A DNA stretch of 60,239 bases, filler included. It is 9 parts of 9 records of this genome, joined end to end, with 100 filler letters (N's around TTAATTAATTAA, not from the genome) between each part and the next. Parts side by side here need not be neighbours in the genome. Positions count along the whole stretch, not along the records: positions 1 to 5,563 come from SRR31156797_57378; 8 more parts are not named here. One strand, given 5' to 3'. The notes below the pieces were generated by a model, which saw only the letters and a program-made list of their open reading frames with translations, did no database searches and was not told the origin of the DNA. Below, piece after piece: positions 1 to 8,105 of this stretch. The first letter of the stretch is position 1. Each line of letters opens with the position of its first letter. A program made the translations under genes and the position numbers.

Positions 1-1620
<1,620 letters not shown>

Positions 1621-1863
1621 TTACATAAAACAAAATGGACAGCGAATAAAGTCGATAGCATGAAAAAAACACAAAAAGGGACCCACCCCGTTAACAATCT
1701 CATATTCAGGCGTATCCCACTTAAAAAAAATGTGTTAGCGGTACGTCCTGAGGAATATAGAGTGTTGACGGGAGGCTGACCCGCAATTATGTTCCTCTCT
1801 TCAAAACACGCATTAGATAGTCTTGGAATATTTCTATTGTCAACATCTGGAGGACAAAAATAT

Positions 1864-2673
1864 ATGGCCCGCGTAAAAGTTTTGGTCATCACCGGTTACG
1901 GAACCAACTGTGAACACGAGTCTGCTCATGCCGCTAAAAAAGCGGGCGCAGACGAAGTAGACATCACTTATTTTTCCGATCTTGCTGCAGGCAAAAAAAC
2001 TCTGGAAGGATACAACTTCCTGATTTTTCCCGGTGGCTTTCTTGACGGCGATGACCTCGGAGCAGCTCAAGCTGCTGCGCTCCGTTGGAAACACGCTCAC
2101 ACCACAGACGGCACCCCGCTTGTGGACCAGATCAAAAAATTCTTTGAAGACGGCGGCGTTATTCTCGGAATCTGCAACGGATTCCAGCTGCTAGTCAAAC
2201 TCGGCCTGCTGCCCGCAGTAGGCGGTGAATACTTCACCCGTCAGGTATCACTCAGCTACAACGATTCCGCAAAATACGAGGATCGCTGGGTACACCTCAA
2301 GGCCAACCCCGATTCTCCCTGCGTTTTCACCAAGGGAATCGAAACCCTCAACGTTCCAGTTCGTCACGGCGAAGGGAAAATCATCCCTGCTGATGATGCC
2401 ATGCTGGAACAAATCGTGGAAAACAACCTCCACGCTGTTCAGTACATTGACCCCGAGTCCAACGAAGTGACCATGGATTACCCTGCCAACCCCAACGGCT
2501 CCCCGCTGGGTATCGCAGGCCTCACAGACCCCTCTGGCCGCATTCTCGGACTCATGCCTCATCCCGAGGCATACAACCACCCCACCAACCATCCCAAGTG
2601 GACCCGTGGCGACATCCCCACCCTTGGGTTGGCGTTGCTCGAAGGTGGCGTGAATTATATTAAGTCTCTGTAA
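1864..2673 (+). CDS. purQ: Phosphoribosylformylglycinamidine synthase glutaminase subunit
   Basis: GYGTNCE, PGGFLDGDDLGA, LGICNGFQ, PANPNGS and GLMPHPE motifs; GGAGGA RBS before ATG 1864. Confidence 0.95.
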   Translation: MARVKVLVITGYGTNCEHESAHAAKKAGADEVDITYFSDLAAGKKTLEGYNFLIFPGGFLDGDDLGAAQAAALRWKHAHTTDGTPLVDQIKKFFEDGGVILGICNGFQLLVKLGLLPAVGGEYFTRQVSLSYNDSAKYEDRWVHLKANPDSPCVFTKGIETLNVPVRHGEGKIIPADDAMLEQIVENNLHAVQYIDPESNEVTMDYPANPNGSPLGIAGLTDPSGRILGLMPHPEAYNHPTNHPKWTRGDIPTLGLALLEGGVNYIKSL

Positions 2674-2680
2674 TTAAGAT

Positions 2681-2761
2681 GCCTCCGGCGGCTCTCCGAG
2701 GACCAGATAAACTTTTATAAAAGTTTATCTGGACCCTTCAAAACCTTTTAATAGGTTTCGC
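2681..2761 (+). repeat. REP-like intergenic palindromic element (copy 1)
   Basis: Starts GCCTCCGGCGGC, contains a perfect 30-bp palindrome CCAGATAAACTTTTATAAAAGTTTATCTGG (2703-2732) and ends TTTTAATAGGTTTCGC. The ends match the element at 27102-27180. Confidence 0.75.
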
Positions 2762-2786
2762 CGTGTTGTAAGGCACATACATATTT

Positions 2787-2814
2787 GAGGGGAGTTTTTA
2801 CTCCCCTCTTTTTT
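2787..2814 (+). terminator. Intrinsic terminator after purQ
   Basis: GAGGGGAGT/ACTCCCCTC stem followed by a T run. Confidence 0.7.
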
Positions 2815-2817
2815 ATT

Positions 2818-3327
2818 ATGACAGATATTATCATCAGAGGAACCCCGCCCGCCGAACCGCCACAAGGCCAGACATGGCGCTCCATGATGGACGTTGCCAT
2901 GCGTGAAGCCTTCAAGGCCCGCCAGCACGAGGAAGTCCCCATCGGCGCGGCTCTTTTCACGGCTGAAGGCGAACTCCTCGCCACCGGAAACAACACCCCG
3001 CTCACTAAGAACGATCCCACCGGACACGCGGAAGTAAACTGCATCCGCAATGCCTGCGAAAAGCTGGATAACTACCGCTTGCCGCGCGGGACCATTCTGG
3101 TGGTTACCTTAGAACCGTGCATCATGTGCCTCGGCGCGATAATTCATGCGCGGGTAGGAGGAGTTGTTTTCGGCGCTCCCGACCCCAAAGCAGGAGCTGT
3201 GGTCTCCAATCTGGAAGGCACAGAACTACCCTTCGCCAACCACAAATTCTGGACCATCGGCGGAGTTTGTGAGAATGAGTGTAAGGAAATTTTACAGAGT
3301 TTTTTTCTGCATAAACGTAAAAAATAA
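2818..3327 (+). CDS. tadA: tRNA adenosine(34) deaminase
   Basis: EVPIGA, NDPTGHAE, TLEPCIMC and FGAPDPKAGA motifs. The start is uncertain (2818 or the MM at about 2884). Confidence 0.92.
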   Translation: MTDIIIRGTPPAEPPQGQTWRSMMDVAMREAFKARQHEEVPIGAALFTAEGELLATGNNTPLTKNDPTGHAEVNCIRNACEKLDNYRLPRGTILVVTLEPCIMCLGAIIHARVGGVVFGAPDPKAGAVVSNLEGTELPFANHKFWTIGGVCENECKEILQSFFLHKRKK

Positions 3328-3342
3328 ATACAAGCTGGGATT

Positions 3343-3696
3343 TTGAGTAATAAAACCTGCAACATAACACGACTAATCGTTTTCCTGCTGTTGGCATTAT
3401 GTCTGATGCCGACGGAGAATGTGCGTCCGATCGATAGCAGGCACAAACTTAGCCACGATTCTAATTTTCTTTACTCTACCCCTAGGGGTGTCGTAACCAC
3501 AACTGACATAGCAGAAACACCCCAGCTAACAGACAGCGTCTCTTTTGCACAAGAACGTCTCACTGCCTTAAGCTGCAGCAAATACTCTATTGATTTTGTC
3601 AGAGCGACCGCATTTCTTTCCAAAGAAGTAACAAAAGGTTTCATACCTCGCATTGCGCATAGGATTATACCTACCCGCGCACCTCCGTTTGCCTAA
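3343..3696 (+). CDS. Putative secretion-coupled ribosome-arrest leader protein (signal peptide plus C-terminal RAPP)
   Basis: N-terminal basic plus hydrophobic segment (TRLIVFLLLALCLM) and C-terminus IPTRAPPFA*. TTG start with a weak RBS. Confidence 0.6.
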   Translation: MSNKTCNITRLIVFLLLALCLMPTENVRPIDSRHKLSHDSNFLYSTPRGVVTTTDIAETPQLTDSVSFAQERLTALSCSKYSIDFVRATAFLSKEVTKGFIPRIAHRIIPTRAPPFA

Positions 3697-3785
3697 ATCG
3701 AGTATAAATCAGACTAACGCAACCAAGACTAACTTTGTCTTAGGTAAACTTATTACTCATTTAAAAATAGAGGCTTACTTCTCTT

Positions 3786-3935
3786 ATGTCTAAATTAACT
3801 TCTTCTAATATTGAAAAATCCATTTCATCAAAATCTGAAACCGATGAAACTTCCAGCAGCCACTTCTCAATAGGACTAGCACTCGCGGCAATTGCCGCGT
3901 TCTTCATCCTATTTGTTTGGATCTGCGGGGTATAA
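3786..3935 (+). CDS. 49-aa tail-anchored small membrane protein
   Basis: MSKLTSSNIEKSISSKSETDETSSSHFSIGLALAAIAAFFILFVWICGV*. GAGG at 3770-3773, a C-terminal hydrophobic helix and a terminator directly downstream. Confidence 0.6.
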   Translation: MSKLTSSNIEKSISSKSETDETSSSHFSIGLALAAIAAFFILFVWICGV

Positions 3936-3953
3936 AAATAATTATAAACTGCA

Positions 3954-3993
3954 AAGTCCCTAAGCGTTTTCCTCGCTTAGGGACTTATTTTTT
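3954..3993 (+). terminator. Intrinsic terminator between the small ORF and the convergent psd-like gene
   Basis: 13-bp stem AAGTCCCTAAGCG/CGCTTAGGGACTT followed by a T run. Confidence 0.85.
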
Positions 3994-4028
3994 GATGATT
4001 TCTTTCAACGCTACTTTCTACCCACAAC

Positions 4029-5264
4029 CTATTCATTCGAGCTAGTATCAAATATCCCGATCTGGTTACCCAACCGAACCTTAATTGCTCCAGATTTATA
4101 CTTACCAGGCTCGAAAATCAGGATCACCAGCGATCCGCCGTAGAGAAAATGTCCAAGCTCATCGCCGCGCTTAACAGCAACCGGACTATTGGCTTTGAGA
4201 AACTTATCTTCGAATATCACTGAACCAACTGTGCTTAAGCCGACCGGAACTACACCGACCAGCCCGTATTTGCCGGTATCAATGATAAAGTAACCACGCT
4301 GATAACTCTCAAAGGCACCGAAGCTGGCCCCGTAATATCCGACATTACCGGTAGTAGGTACGAACTTCGGAAAATCTTCCATGCCCAGCAAAGCACCATC
4401 AATGAGCCTTGTCTCAACAACCTTGCCGCCCACAGGAGAATGGTAATGATGATAGGTGTTAGGCATTAAAATACAGGACATGGCGGTACCGCCCACAAAT
4501 TTTTCCCAATACTTTGAACCGGCAAGCAACTGCCTGATGTTCAGCACCTGCATCCCCTTGGTAGGAATTGTCGCTGTTTCTGCCACAATCTTAGCCGGGA
4601 TGGTATTCACAATAGCATCTGTAGGAGCGCCAATCACATAATCCCGCTCCGGCATTGTCTGGGGACGTACCTTCTTGATATCCTTAAATCTACGTGAAAA
4701 AAAATCATTATAAGATCTAAATCCCCCGTCAGCAGCCTTTGGGTCAGGCAAAACATACTCTTCTTTTTCAATGCGAGGATCAGCCAACCACGCAGAAACG
4801 TATTTTGTCGATGCCTTGCTGTTCAAGAAATCCCCACGTTCCTTGGCAAAATGATCAAAAATCATAATTCCAGGACTAGTCTGAAATGCGGCCCTACCAA
4901 ACGGATTCATATAGGCAAAGAGGTCCATCTGCTCAATATAAAGCAACCCATTATCTGAGCTACCTTTTGCCTCGGGAAGAAACGAGCACCACTCAACAAA
5001 AAAAGGAACCATATCCGCAAAGGACTTGCCCTGCCACGGATTGCCCCCGACGCGATAACCTTCTGGAGTAGGCTGTATGTTCTGGAATGCCTCATCAATG
5101 AGCAACTTGAAGACCTGATCTTTTTCATAGGAATCGACCAGATCCGAAATTGATTCCTTGCATGGGCAATCATCGGGAATGGCATAGTCTGCCCCATAAC
5201 TCAGGCATGGCAAAAATAGAAATAATAGGCCGCTCAAAATCACCGACAAATAACTTTTGCTCAT
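4029..5264 (-). CDS. Phosphatidylserine-decarboxylase-family pyruvoyl-dependent decarboxylase with N-terminal signal peptide
   Basis: YNDFFSR, APTDA, YHHYHSP and KRGDELGHFLYGGS (autocleavage GGS). GGAGG RBS before ATG 5264 and a hydrophobic N-terminus. Confidence 0.88.
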   Translation of the reverse strand: MSKSYLSVILSGLLFLFLPCLSYGADYAIPDDCPCKESISDLVDSYEKDQVFKLLIDEAFQNIQPTPEGYRVGGNPWQGKSFADMVPFFVEWCSFLPEAKGSSDNGLLYIEQMDLFAYMNPFGRAAFQTSPGIMIFDHFAKERGDFLNSKASTKYVSAWLADPRIEKEEYVLPDPKAADGGFRSYNDFFSRRFKDIKKVRPQTMPERDYVIGAPTDAIVNTIPAKIVAETATIPTKGMQVLNIRQLLAGSKYWEKFVGGTAMSCILMPNTYHHYHSPVGGKVVETRLIDGALLGMEDFPKFVPTTGNVGYYGASFGAFESYQRGYFIIDTGKYGLVGVVPVGLSTVGSVIFEDKFLKANSPVAVKRGDELGHFLYGGSLVILIFEPGKYKSGAIKVRLGNQIGIFDTSSNE

Positions 5265-5529
5265 CACCACTCCCTCCTGAAATGAAATATTAATTAACTT
5301 CACCATCACCGGAACACACAGAATACAAGCTTAAGCATACTACAAATAGGAACACCCTGTAATCAGAAAACACCTATTGATTTGCAGTCCGCATCTATGC
5401 GGCATTAAATATCTATTTTAGATATCGGCCTACGATCCCAATCATTTCTGCTTGCCAAGCTCCCCAAAAAAACATATAAATCGTGCCTTCCAAGACCGGA
5501 TCGCCGGAATCGGTCTTGCTTATAAACGC

Positions 5530-5563
5530 GGAAAGGTAGCGAAGTCCGGCCGTAACGCGCTCG
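5530..5563 (+). tRNA. tRNA-Ser-like 5' fragment, cut before the anticodon by the contig end
   Basis: GGAAAGGTAGCGAAGTCCGGCCGTAACGCGCTCG resembles the acceptor and D-arm of class II Ser tRNAs. A TTGCCA...TATAAA promoter-like sequence lies upstream. Confidence 0.65.
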
Positions 5564-5663
5564 NNNNNNNNNNNNNNNNNNNNNNNNNNNNNNNNNNNNN
5601 NNNNNNNTTAATTAATTAANNNNNNNNNNNNNNNNNNNNNNNNNNNNNNNNNNNNNNNNNNNN
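5564..5663. other. Artificial contig linker
   Basis: N-runs flanking TTAATTAATTAA (stops in all six frames). Confidence 0.99.
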
Positions 5664-5718
5664 AAAGGCTGCCCCTTTTGAGACAGCCTCTTCCCCCGTA
5701 TTGTGATTATTAATTTTC

Positions 5719-7794
5719 TTATTCTATAATTAATCTTTGAGTTCCAACTTTGTTGCCGTTTTGAACTCTAACCATGTAAACGCCAGAGTTTACATCAAGG
5801 TTAATATTTTGTGATCCATTAATAATTCTTGAATCAACAACTTTTCCTGCAATATTGAAAATAGTCACTTGGGAAGTACCATCAGCGTCAATATTGAAGG
5901 AACCTGTAGATGGATTTGGATACATTGAAAAATCTAAAGTTTTAGCATTTTCATTATCCTTAATACCAACATTACTAAATTCAATATCTAAAGAAATAGC
6001 TGGTCCGGCACCACCTGATGGATAAGATACATCACTTGCATTGAGCACAGATGCATTTACTAATGCACATGATTCCGGAGAACGTTTTTGTACATCATTT
6101 GATGCTTCATATATATTCCATGATTGCAAAGCTCCATCCTGAGGTCTTACCCAGTTTCCATACATGTGAATTGCTGCCACATAATCACCACCATTGAATA
6201 CATATTCTGATGTTCCATCTGGAACAAATGGCACATAAACTATAGAAGCTGTATCATCTATGGTTAATACGCGTTCGCTTGAAGATGTTATCTCTGTATA
6301 AGTTTCATCTTCTTCATTATAACGGTAAATGGCAACTACAACTCTTGCTTCTTCGTTAAGGAATAAATCTAATTCTTGTTGATAGTTATCATTTCGAGAA
6401 ATGTAAACATTCATTCCTTTTAAAATGTAAAAATCATTTTCTTCACCATGTAAATCTGGTTCAGGTAAATTAAAGAAGAAACCTAATCCATCTCCATCTT
6501 CATCAAAGGCATTGGTCCAGTTATCAGGAGACATTGTTCCATCTTTTTTATCCATATTAACCGGACTTAATATAGTCTCACCAATTTTCATGTGACGATA
6601 AAGTGAATCGTTTATTGTAGCTTCTTCATCCTGATCTGTTGATGGATAATGAATGAATGTATATAATCCTTTTTGTGAAAAATCTGCACCCTCTAGAGGC
6701 ATATAATCTTGCATCCAGAAAGTAGTGTCTCTGTATCCTGGGATTAGTGAAGCTATTGGATCAGAAGAGAATGTTTCTTCTAATGCACCATCTTTCCACA
6801 CTTCAACTACGTGAGTAAAATTGGTTTGTTCTGCTGAACCAAAATTATGGAAGGCTGCGTGAAATCCTTTGAATTCTTGAATTAAGAACCATGGATATTC
6901 ATAAAATCCTTCAGTAAAGCTGGTTCTTGATGAAATTGGATAATCTTCTGATCCGTCTCTGTATTCAATATAATCATTCCAGTAATCCCATAGGTACATA
7001 TCGTTAGCCATAGGAACAACAAATGATACATCATCGATAATCCAATAATAGTGACTAAGACCATTCATATGGAATTTGAAAATCACATTTGATTCTCCAG
7101 CCACATCAGAAGTTATATCAATTTCTGTAGTGTATGATGATTCACCAAAACCACCAACACCTTTGTTGATGTCGCCAACAGATACTTTATGCTGATTCCA
7201 GCTTGTTCCTCCATCAGTTGAGACCATAAACCATGCATCTGAAGTAGCGCTATAACTACAGCAGAATCTGTTACCCTGTTCAAAAACAAGGTGAACAGCA
7301 TCCTGATCTGAAAAATCAATTCCAGCATCGTAACGCACATAAGAGTCCATAGCATCTTCAAACATACCAGAGCAATCAGCAGCAGTGTTGAAGTGATCTG
7401 CTTCAAGCATCAAGTACCCATTTGATTGGGTTGGCGTAAGGACAGCTTCTGTTGGTACGTTACATTCTGCTTGTGATGCAGAAGTCCATAATCCTCTTGG
7501 TCCAACGGTATCCCATCTGAAATAAAATCCGTTGTTGCTGTCATCACCAATTGTCCAGCCTGCAGGTGTATTAGCAGGAACTGGCTCTCCATTATTGCTG
7601 GTGCCAGACCAGTCTGCGCCATCAAAATCCTCTGTCCAAAGAATGTCTCCAGGATCTTTAGTAGTGTGATGTGACTTTAGGGAAGTTTCAGGTACAGCTT
7701 TGTCGAGGCTGTACTTTCTAGGTGTAAAACCTTTTTGAGCCATAGCAAATGCTGCAAATGCAAGCATTGCTAAAATTAACGTAGCTTTTTTCAT
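5719..7794 (-). CDS. T9SS type-A sorting domain protein, paralog 1 (MAM/cleaved-adhesin-like domain)
   Basis: Signal peptide MKKATLILAMLAFAAFAMA-Q; WTEDFDG...PAGW...IIDDV module; STDGGTSW; C-terminal YPNPSTG...SGVYMVRV...KVGTQRLIIE. Confidence 0.9.
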   Translation of the reverse strand: MKKATLILAMLAFAAFAMAQKGFTPRKYSLDKAVPETSLKSHHTTKDPGDILWTEDFDGADWSGTSNNGEPVPANTPAGWTIGDDSNNGFYFRWDTVGPRGLWTSASQAECNVPTEAVLTPTQSNGYLMLEADHFNTAADCSGMFEDAMDSYVRYDAGIDFSDQDAVHLVFEQGNRFCCSYSATSDAWFMVSTDGGTSWNQHKVSVGDINKGVGGFGESSYTTEIDITSDVAGESNVIFKFHMNGLSHYYWIIDDVSFVVPMANDMYLWDYWNDYIEYRDGSEDYPISSRTSFTEGFYEYPWFLIQEFKGFHAAFHNFGSAEQTNFTHVVEVWKDGALEETFSSDPIASLIPGYRDTTFWMQDYMPLEGADFSQKGLYTFIHYPSTDQDEEATINDSLYRHMKIGETILSPVNMDKKDGTMSPDNWTNAFDEDGDGLGFFFNLPEPDLHGEENDFYILKGMNVYISRNDNYQQELDLFLNEEARVVVAIYRYNEEDETYTEITSSSERVLTIDDTASIVYVPFVPDGTSEYVFNGGDYVAAIHMYGNWVRPQDGALQSWNIYEASNDVQKRSPESCALVNASVLNASDVSYPSGGAGPAISLDIEFSNVGIKDNENAKTLDFSMYPNPSTGSFNIDADGTSQVTIFNIAGKVVDSRIINGSQNINLDVNSGVYMVRVQNGNKVGTQRLIIE

Positions 7795-8105
7795 TTTAAA
7801 CAATTTTGAGTAATACGGGTACCGTAAAAGTAGAAAATTTGTGAGGGAATAAAAAATTAACAAAAGAAAAATTTTGTCTATTTGTCAGTTTATGTTATGC
7901 TAAACAACATTTATTCATTAGGGTGAAATAGTTATGTTGTGATATGCATATTACAATAATTGCTACACATATTTATATAAATTGATGTTATGCTTTGAAG
8001 TAACTGAAAATGAATTAGCTTTAATTGAGGGGGAGATGAGGGTAGAAATGCTATTAACAAAATAACTTAGACATATTTCTTTTAATGCGGGTGTTCAATT
8101 ATAGC

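Follow-up and report, generated by a model that had tools for sequence, protein, structure and literature searches.

The window, the whole stretch of 60,239 nucleotides analyzed here, is composed of several unrelated pieces joined by runs of N, and the locus described below lies in window 1-5563; the initial annotation had assigned the DNA to a sulfate reducer, which holds for this piece and does not extend to the other joined pieces. All the features listed in that annotation for window 3343-3993, i.e., a 117-aa leader ending in RAPPFA*, a 49-aa ORF for a tail-anchored protein, and a terminator, were located in the sequence exactly where it had placed them. The leader ORF (3343..3696, plus strand), as delimited by ORF reading and by its homologues, encodes 117 aa with the C-terminus ...IPTRAPPFA*, and its stop codon occupies 3694-3696. 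The start codon is TTG with a weak SD. The signal-peptide-like N-terminus (3343..3420) comprises a basic n-region and, after it, 14 uncharged residues that form a Leu-rich hydrophobic run, and the RAPP codons CGC GCA CCT CCG, whose R, P, and P are invariant among the leaders, are at 3676..3687. The following segments are defined by RNA pairing: the 5′ arm of the outer helix, which is the anti-SD and lies within the stall-site codons (3682..3690); the 5′ arm of the middle helix, which begins at the leader stop (3694..3704; partner 3754-3763), both from the MFE fold; an inner intergenic hairpin (3722..3745) from the RNAalifold consensus; and the 3′ arms of the middle and outer helices (3754..3773), which include the SD GAGG (3770-3773). 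The SD is placed 12 nt 5′ of the ATG of the 49-aa microprotein ORF (3786..3935, plus strand), and this long SD-ATG spacing is a feature of the clade of the window. An intrinsic terminator (3954..3993, plus strand), consisting of a 13-bp stem (3954-3986; 7 G-C pairs) and a T run, closes the module. On the minus strand, a single weak promoter-like site was seen and no antisense promoter of note.

Upstream of the leader lies a gene for a tadA-like tRNA adenosine deaminase (2818..3327, plus strand; Pfam PF14437/PF00383), whose 169-aa form read from an ATG start matches loci L001/L002 and which has a terminator-like hairpin on its 5′ side (2787-2808). Its end and the leader start are 15 nt apart, and the two genes are probably on one transcript in the lineage of the window; the tadA-like gene is context and stands outside the conserved module.

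Conservation of the leader and the microprotein

The order of leader followed by microprotein on the same strand was found in 18 of 18 related loci, i.e., the window and 17 further loci, with a spacer of 68-93 nt between the two ORFs. Downstream of the microprotein ORF, each of the 17 complete loci has a strong hairpin, and compensatory changes in the terminator stem are visible in the alignment. The gene order proposed for the window is thus retained despite differing flanks, which vary by lineage (tadA/psd, fdhD/fdhE, Hsp90/LysM, and others). Six of the loci, missed by the leader profile, were added by a search with the microprotein profile, and in each of these an ORF with a signal sequence and with R(A/G)PP at its end lies upstream; one more, L053, came from a phylum sample and completes the 18. 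Because the loci share kinship, tallies over them, here and below, are not counts of independent cases. Among the weak matches L013-L032, inspection covered L013, L015, and L018 and gave no RAPP-ending ORF; of the matches to the microprotein profile, the weakest six, L047-L052 (E 0.0016-0.0082; open frames of 277-485 aa), were excluded from all counts. The only piece returned by Rfam was a sub-threshold rli33 piece on the terminator.

The only invariant columns among 21 aligned leaders, whose identity falls to 17%, are the R, P, and P of R(A/G)PP and one Leu in the hydrophobic segment. Conservation of RAPP, which the initial annotation had made a key point, was borne out in all 21 of these leaders as R-x-P-P, with Ala at the second residue in 20 and Gly in one (RGPP), as well as in the leader of L053, which ends in ...IRAPPFF*. 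The motif sits 2-7 codons ahead of the stop in 17 of 17 loci, and the sequence that follows it varies among loci in both length and residues. Likewise, seven of the eight database proteins P0001-P0008 finish with RAPP and a short variable tail, the exception being P0002, with one residue past the motif. The signal-like N-terminus is also retained, in that all 17 leaders examined, which are 117-136 aa long, have a basic n-region and an uncharged hydrophobic run of 12-26 residues, as judged by inspection and a hydropathy script. A lipoprotein signal was considered and rejected, since the Cys of the hydrophobic segment varies among the leaders. Neither Cys nor His, either of which might bind a metal, is conserved at any position of the 21 aligned leaders. 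In the AlphaFold2 model of the leader, helix 4-21 is the sole confident element and residues 26-81 fall below pLDDT 50; the middle of the leader is poorly conserved and probably unstructured. The leader matched no Pfam family (E ≤ 1) and no NCBIfam family at curated cut-offs. It belongs to an unnamed cluster of the protein atlas, where its language-model neighbor “SecM_small” at 0.93 is to be taken as a lead only.

The microprotein is 44-69 aa long across the loci. Its N-terminal half is polar, with a Ser-rich N-terminus in the window, and contains the conserved motif DY-x-PK-x-Y; its C-terminal half is hydrophobic, with a transmembrane segment at about residues 27-47 of the 49-aa form. Conservation of the microprotein is highest in the transmembrane segment; in the leader, the hydrophobic segment comes second only to RAPP. 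The dN/dS ratio of the microprotein is 0.16-0.36 versus 0.88-3.6 in two off frames, and that of the leader is 0.12-0.31 in four close loci; on these ratios, both ORFs are under purifying selection, and the small ORF passes the conservation check set for it in the initial annotation. The microprotein had been introduced as unannotated, which does not hold everywhere; the gene is annotated as “hypothetical protein” in several relatives, e.g., Desal_2264 of Maridesulfovibrio salexigens DSM 2638, and all database relatives are either so labeled or unnamed. The microprotein falls in an unnamed cluster of the protein atlas and matched nothing in Pfam or NCBIfam at curated cut-offs, and the best sub-threshold family rows (EssA and Rv2732c) span the transmembrane segment only. 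A SecE- or Sec61-beta-like tail-anchored translocon subunit was considered for the microprotein and rejected, as 10 microproteins gave no match to SecE or any translocon family at E ≤ 10. The searches returned one match per matched genome, amid housekeeping genes, and no longer, fused form of the microprotein was found, which is weak evidence against such forms.

Pairing between the stall-site codons and the microprotein SD

The MFE fold of 3670-3800 reproduces the stem drawn in the initial annotation, including its CCTC:GAGG pairing: CCUC at 3682-3685 pairs with GAGG at 3770-3773, 3687-3690 with 3765-3768, and 3694-3698 plus 3700-3704 with 3754-3763, while 3722-3729 and 3737-3745 form the inner hairpin. 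By itself, the fold of the window locus is no better than chance, with −17.9 kcal/mol versus −14.9 ± 2.9 for shuffles (z −1.04) and 35 of 200 shuffles equally good. The stall zone of this locus ranks 7th among 397 upstream windows as a partner of the SD segment, 10% of the synonymous recodings of the last six codons paired as well as the real sequence or better, and in a 351-nt context the SD core pairs with the 3682..3690 zone at a mean per-base probability of 0.87. It is the comparative evidence from the 17 further loci that places the pairing above chance.

In the MFE folds of all 18 loci, the stall zone pairs with the microprotein SD. The mean per-base probability of this pairing for the SD core is 0.52-1.00 in 11 loci (−200..+40 context), and the stall zone accounts for 0.85-1.00 of all SD pairing in the 7 further loci. 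In every one of the 18 loci, the real codons pair better than 2000 synonymous recodings do on average, and 9 of the loci reach p ≤ 0.05. The first Pro codon of the motif is CCT in 13 of the 18 loci, including four GC-rich loci in whose neighboring genes CCT makes up 6 of 106 Pro codons. When row and column effects are removed, cognate duplexes of stall zone and SD are 2.9 kcal/mol better than expected, the residual being negative in 16 of 18 and the observed mean being reached by none of 5000 permutations. Both the stall-codon:SD pairing in the 18 MFE folds and this lineage-specific co-adaptation agree with the conservation and covariation expected of the stem.

A covariance model built from 11 loci recovers 5 of the 7 loci unseen in building, and in the 16-row alignment, which is fitted to the model itself, 79% of cells pair versus 39-50% with the partner slid, and 10 of 18 pairs are changed on both sides. 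Such double changes affect 6 of 7 pairs of the inner hairpin and only 4 of 11 pairs of the outer helix, the core of which cannot covary because Pro-Pro codons are inherently complementary to an SD. RNAalifold on a MAFFT alignment returned the inner hairpin and not the stall-zone:SD helix. In addition, the stall zone heads the list of SD partners in only 4 of 11 loci and ranks between 2nd and 35th in the others, so that the best-partner scan alone does not single it out. Taken over the sequences and their folds, the codons of the stall site, or the ones immediately 3′, appear to be the preferred pairing partner of the SD in every locus. With the region of a simulated stalled ribosome masked, opening the RBS costs 1.7-8.0 kcal/mol less in 17 of 18 loci; the drop is modest in the window (2.3 kcal/mol) and absent in L002 (−0.2). 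The model leaves the SD mostly paired elsewhere even under the mask (P(unpaired) 0.03-0.25).

Proposed switch and its alternatives

The leaders quite likely represent a new family of RAPP-type arrest leaders in which the stalled ribosome would unmask the microprotein SD, and leader and microprotein together most likely form a translational switch of the SecM/ApdA type that comprises just these two genes and represents an apparently undescribed family. By analogy with established RAPP peptides, the ribosome is expected to stall at the RAPP of the leader, where it would enclose about 3667-3698, a stretch that contains all of the anti-SD arm (3682-3690) and the beginning of the middle helix. This would free the SD at 3770-3773, and a second ribosome could start on the microprotein. 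On release of the stall, the ribosome would terminate 2 codons on, the helix would re-form, and microprotein synthesis would be turned off. Release might be brought about by pulling force once the export machinery engages the signal sequence of the leader, and in that case the microprotein would be made when the capacity for export or insertion drops. That the leader senses export is suggested by analogy with related systems, and we rate this part at slightly below even. It is tempting, if rather unlikely, that the microprotein is a novel accessory factor of export or membrane insertion in Desulfovibrionaceae, with the leader as its dedicated monitoring substrate; the factor would then be made only when the export of the leader itself slows, as in SecM-SecA, MifM-YidC2, and VemP-SecDF2. 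If true, this would reveal a new bacterial translocation component, beyond mere gene regulation.

An ordinary two-gene operon seems improbable to us. In such an operon, the leader would be a small secreted or periplasmic protein whose RAPP serves as a processing or binding motif in the mature form, no stall would be programmed, and the complementarity to the SD would be a by-product of CCN CCN facing a purine-rich sequence. A window fold no better than shuffles, a recoding test that is non-significant in 9 of 18 loci, and a core helix that pairs without covariation would all be expected from it, but invariance is confined to R-x-P-P and a single Leu of the signal peptide, and identity over the presumed mature part falls to 17%, whereas a functional mature protein would show the opposite; nor does the leader model have a confident fold in that part. 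The tail past the motif is variable in length and sequence, the sole substitution gives RGPP, the other strong arrest core in the available text of PMC12992588, CCT is retained where it is a rare codon, and cognate pairing is better than non-cognate pairing, all of which speaks against this reading. We also give little credence to a genuine arrest peptide that works differently, either with an output other than SD unmasking, as in CruR, where the stalled ribosome blocks Rho-dependent termination or alters mRNA decay, or with a signal other than export. Such a signal might be a ligand, nascent-chain folding, or an encounter in the membrane between the microprotein and the hydrophobic segment of the leader. 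In favor of this reading, the hydrophobic segment of the leader (after RAPP) and the transmembrane segment of the microprotein are both best conserved, and the SD is modeled as largely paired even with the stall zone masked. As far as the available texts go, CruR pairs RAPP with Rho and is released independently of its signal peptide (PMC9426467), and RAPP/RGPP leaders stand ahead of genes of many functions (PMC12992588). On the other hand, only 68-93 nt of folded RNA separate the two ORFs, the SD is paired with the stall zone in 18 of 18 loci, the aligned leaders show no conserved Cys/His for a metal, and the leader of the window has no match to DUF2946.

In mok/hok, translation of the toxin depends on an upstream reading frame. 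The microprotein is likewise small and hydrophobic, with a sequestered SD and an upstream ORF that would govern access to it, and might be a type I toxin-like membrane peptide whose translation is held off by mRNA structure in dependence on the upstream frame, but this is highly improbable given its polar N-terminal half with DY-x-PK-x-Y ahead of a C-terminal transmembrane segment, its purifying selection, its occurrence as a single match per matched genome among housekeeping genes, the one weak promoter-like site on the minus strand with no antisense promoter of note, and the lack of a Pfam or NCBIfam match.

Arrest-peptide leaders were first found before SecA, SecDF, and YidC, and lately before metal and redox genes. 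In the switch that we favor, the sole gene under putative control encodes a conserved tail-anchored protein of 44-69 residues without known relatives, and the leader-microprotein pair moves together through differing genomic neighborhoods. If the logic of a monitoring substrate holds, the switch reports when the cell needs the microprotein and would therefore offer a direct experimental handle on its function. The design is also economical, the stall codons doubling as the anti-SD in a family whose neighboring genes range from roughly 46 to 70% in GC, and it would thus provide a clean model for the opening of a long-range helix by a stalled ribosome.

Relation to known arrest peptides

In ApdA and ApdP, whose stall geometry was applied to the leader above (PMC10951233, PMC7897499), arrest needs only R, A, P, and the A-site Pro, according to the available text of PMC7897499. 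The class is defined there by a length of 80-200 aa, a topogenic signal at the N-terminus, and a hydrophilic domain that spans at least 40 aa, and the leader agrees with it in its C-terminal R-A/G-P-P, its size and topogenic signal, and its place directly upstream on the same strand. As in ApdA/ApdP, the topogenic signal of the small protein is followed by a hydrophilic spacer and by RAPP a few codons before the stop, and its gene is the immediate upstream, same-strand neighbor of the presumed target. Unlike ApdA/ApdP, however, the leader is known from sequence, its arrest being inferred; it has no similarity to them beyond the motif, and the downstream gene encodes a 49-aa protein without known family rather than a Sec or YidC component. 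Compared with the monitoring substrates SecM, MifM, VemP, and ApcA/ApdA/ApdP, the family thus has no SecA, SecDF, or YidC downstream, while an SD-sequestering structure that a stall would open is predicted in 18 of 18 loci. Escherichia coli SecM-secA, as described in the available text of PMC10987492, shares with it a signal-bearing leader, a stall at R-A-x-P, and an SD-hiding stem-loop opened by the stalled ribosome, but in the present family the core is RAPP instead of RAGP, neither SecM Pfam family (SecM, SecM_small) is matched, the stall codons themselves are the anti-SD, and the target is a microprotein. CruR of Bordetella pertussis (Bp2923, DUF2946; PMC9426467, available text) is likewise an exported-looking upstream ORF that controls the downstream gene and has RAPP three residues from its C-terminus. 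It has a conserved CXXC at fixed spacing from RAPP, senses copper, and acts by Rho-dependent termination, whereas in the present family no Cys is conserved among the 21 aligned leaders, the leader of the window has no match to DUF2946 (PF11162), and an SD-pairing helix is present.

A literature search returned no paper tying Desulfovibrio to arrest peptides and none naming the type-strain locus tags. A precedent for the nature of the target is given by PMC12992588, the available text of which reports RGPP as the other robust arrest core besides RAPP, the depletion of RAPP-like motifs from proteomes and their enrichment near the C-terminus of small secretory proteins, and RAPP/RGPP leaders ahead of genes of diverse function, including seven arrest peptides of Streptomyces lividans. 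The restriction of known targets to Sec components and metal uptake, as supposed in the initial annotation, is outdated in light of these published cases. Like this class, the present family has R(A/G)PP close to the C-terminus of a small protein that bears a localization signal, and its presumed target lies outside Sec/YidC. According to the same text, the survey scored only downstream genes with a predicted function and excluded “unknown” ones; a hypothetical microprotein would have gone unscored as a target. The general class, which is represented by SecM, ApdA/ApdP, CruR, and the Streptomyces peptides, is already known, and the leader-microprotein family is most likely a new member of it.

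The leader and its arrest motif

The leader proposed in the initial annotation, an ORF of 117 codons ending ...IPTRAPPFA*, is present in the sequence at 3343–3696 (+), with a TTG start at 3343 and a TAA stop at 3694–3696. It falls below every Pfam and NCBIfam cut-off. A word-indexed search gave three relatives, and six credible ones came from a full HMMER scan covering 1.84 billion representatives, and RAPP lies near the C-terminus in all credible relatives from these searches; two long repetitive proteins that also scored in the HMMER scan were set aside and not used. When a leader profile was run against 401 genomes of the family that includes the genome of related locus L001, 28 genomes matched at E ≤ 0.1, nine of them over the full length, and all nine full-length matches end in RAPP plus 2–7 residues; three weaker matches in this sample were checked, and nothing was found. 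Among 21 aligned leaders, with identity to that of the window as low as 17%, the residues that never vary are a single Leu in the hydrophobic segment and the R, P and P of the motif, and its Ala is kept in 20, so that RAPP is indeed conserved in homologs.

The signal-peptide-like N-terminus noted earlier recurs in all 17 locus-derived leaders as a basic n-region with an uncharged hydrophobic run of 12–26 residues, and small residues come after the run in most of them. An AlphaFold2 model from the 21-leader alignment (mean pLDDT 54) is confident for the helix of residues 4–21 alone and stays below 50 for residues 26–81. The leader dN/dS is 0.12–0.31 among the four closest loci. Taking the start that agrees between lineages, 9 of 17 starts picked by script are TTG or GTG, and no clear SD was found 5' of the leader start in most loci; translation of the leader itself may be weak or unusual.

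The microprotein and its genomic setting

The postulated ORF of 49 codons is likewise present at 3786–3935 (+), with an ATG start at 3786. All loci found with the leader profile, one of which is cut by a contig end, carry an ORF of 47–57 codons with a C-terminal hydrophobic segment, 72–93 nt past the leader stop. The products have in common a polar N-terminal part, which outside the window's clade contains a DY-x-PK-x-Y-like motif, and a C-terminal TM. The microprotein is conserved, given these homologous ORFs and a dN/dS of 0.16–0.36 in the four closest loci, as against 0.88–3.6 in its two off frames. It also lies below every Pfam and NCBIfam cut-off, and its database copies, e.g. Desal_2264 of M. 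salexigens DSM 2638, are named "hypothetical protein."

A profile of 10 microproteins, searched against the 401 family genomes, at E ≤ 2e-5 recovered the eight genomes already known together with six new ones; the six weakest matches, which lie within long frames, are outside the locus counts. Upstream of the microprotein, each of the six new loci has an ORF whose N-terminus is hydrophobic and which ends in RAPP (five) or RGPP (one). In 401 genomes sampled from the phylum, the microprotein search found the query genome and just one other, whose leader ends ...IRAPPFF*. The module is carried by 15 of the 401 genomes of the family sample, and a leader is present in all 18 loci bearing the microprotein, the gene order being kept throughout. 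Since the flanking genes vary by lineage (FdhD and FdhE, Hsp90 and a LysM protein, a molybdopterin enzyme, or a TPP enzyme), the conserved unit, judging from gene order, is the leader, the microprotein and the strong hairpin immediately after it. In the window the claimed strong terminator corresponds to a hairpin at 3954–3986 (+) of 13 pairs, 7 of them G-C, followed by a T run, the strongest such site of the region. In Rfam, part of Listeria rli33 matches 3927–4008 (−) below threshold (27.8 bits; gathering score 46); the match is located on this hairpin and most likely just reflects it.

The window consists of at least nine stretches split by N runs, and the eight junctions (5564–5663, 12628, 18593, 27340, 32651, 38428, 47767 and 54513) are paired runs of 44 N, 12 bases apart. 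Because GC ranges from 0.31 to 0.59 among the stretches, the window strings together unrelated contigs, of which only 1–5563 belongs with the present finding. This piece encodes, in order, a PurQ-like amidotransferase, a TadA-like deaminase, the leader, the microprotein and an opposed phosphatidylserine-decarboxylase-like gene, an order shared with two records titled Maridesulfovibrio sp. At 2785–2818, the tadA-like ORF is listed with a TTG start that overlaps a terminator-like hairpin (2787–2808); ATG 2818 gives the 169-aa form found in L001 and L002, another related locus, and the transcription unit with this gene therefore probably starts 3' of the hairpin. The phosphatidylserine-decarboxylase-like gene (4029–5309, −) is an unusually long form, with a hydrophobic N-terminus and about 200 residues preceding the Pfam domain (residues 201–418). 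Between the microprotein terminator and this gene, L002 (4671–5117, −) and, at the same place, related locus L008 have an ORF of 148–152 aa, absent from the window and L001, that is extremely rich in Lys, Glu and Arg, has a signal-like N-terminus and matched no Pfam family. In L003, a metagenome contig, an IS1595-family transposase (4871–5794, +) adjoins the module directly past fdhE. The next, low-GC piece of the window holds a 714-aa ORF (5719–7863, −) with a signal-like N-terminus and a C-terminal end that we take to resemble a type IX secretion sorting domain.

Pairing of the stall zone with the SD

The minimum free energy fold of 3670–3800 reproduces the claimed stem onto the SD: CCUC of the Pro-Pro codons (3682–3685) pairs with GAGG (3770–3773), 3687–3690 with 3765–3768, and 3694–3704 with 3754–3763, with an inner hairpin between 3722 and 3745. 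Taken alone, this fold is not exceptional (−17.9 kcal/mol, z −1.04; 35 of 200 shuffles fold equally well). Each locus was folded from 6 bases 5' of the Arg codon to 8 bases beyond the start codon. In all 18 loci, whose neighboring genes range in GC from about 0.46 to 0.70, the stall-site codons, or those immediately 3', pair with the SD; the loci are related, and such counts are not independent trials. With 200 nt of 5' and 40 nt of 3' context, the SD core pairs with the zone between the Arg codon and +26 at a mean per-base probability of 0.52–1.00 in 11 loci, and in the other seven this zone takes 0.85–1.00 of all SD pairing.

Pairing of this kind might reflect the natural fit of CCN-CCN to GGAGG, against which recoding, codon choice and cognate versus non-cognate pairing were examined. 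When the last leader codons were randomly and synonymously recoded, weighted by local codon use, the recoded sequences paired more weakly on average in all 18 loci, the real sequence falling within the best 5% in nine and at 10% in the window itself. CCT encodes the first Pro of the motif in 13 of 18 loci, including four GC-rich ones in whose neighboring genes CCT accounts for 6 of 106 prolines. After removal of row and column effects, a stall zone and the SD segment of its own locus have a pairing advantage of 2.9 kcal/mol over mixed pairs; 16 of 18 loci have a negative residual, and none of 5000 permutations reached the observed mean. On the other side, when upstream partners of the SD were ranked in 11 loci, the stall zone came first in only four. 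A covariance model from 11 loci found five of seven unseen loci at the right place, missing L041 and L046. In its alignment, which is fitted to the model, 79% of cells pair versus 39–50% with partners slid, and, as to covariation of the stem, both sides change in 6 of 7 pairs of the inner hairpin and in 4 of 11 pairs of the outer helix; RNAalifold on a plain alignment gave the inner hairpin only.

Predicted effect of a stall and relation to known arrest leaders

The arrest of ApdA and ApdP needs only R, A, P and an A-site Pro, and the stalled ribosome blocks reverse transcriptase 15–17 nt 3' of the first P-site base (PMC7897499). A ribosome stalled with 3682–3684 in its P site would cover the entire anti-SD arm (3682–3690) along with the beginning of the middle helix, and would thereby free the SD 80–90 nt downstream. 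To imitate such a ribosome, no pairing was allowed from −15 to +14 around the P-site codon. The energy of opening the ribosome-binding site then fell by 1.7–8.0 kcal/mol in all loci but one, 17 of 18; in L002 the fall was −0.2 kcal/mol. The SD is predicted to stay mostly paired to other partners even then (probability of being unpaired 0.03–0.25). Release of the stall through export of the leader is proposed by analogy, with the signal-like N-terminus as its sole support.

The literature searched held no paper pairing Desulfovibrio with "arrest peptide" and no citation of Desal_2263 to Desal_2265. The class itself is already known, and the leader–microprotein pair is placed within it: proteomes are depleted of RAPP and RGPP, which are enriched close to the C-terminus of small membrane and secretory proteins encoded 5' of genes of diverse function (PMC12992588). 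Among the downstream genes, that survey took into account just those with a predicted function. The module is unusual in that its sole predicted target is a microprotein of no assigned function. SecM, MifM and VemP act via stems that hide an SD (PMC10987492). CruR shares RAPP with the leader but has CXXC and acts through Rho (PMC9426467), neither of which applies to the leader.
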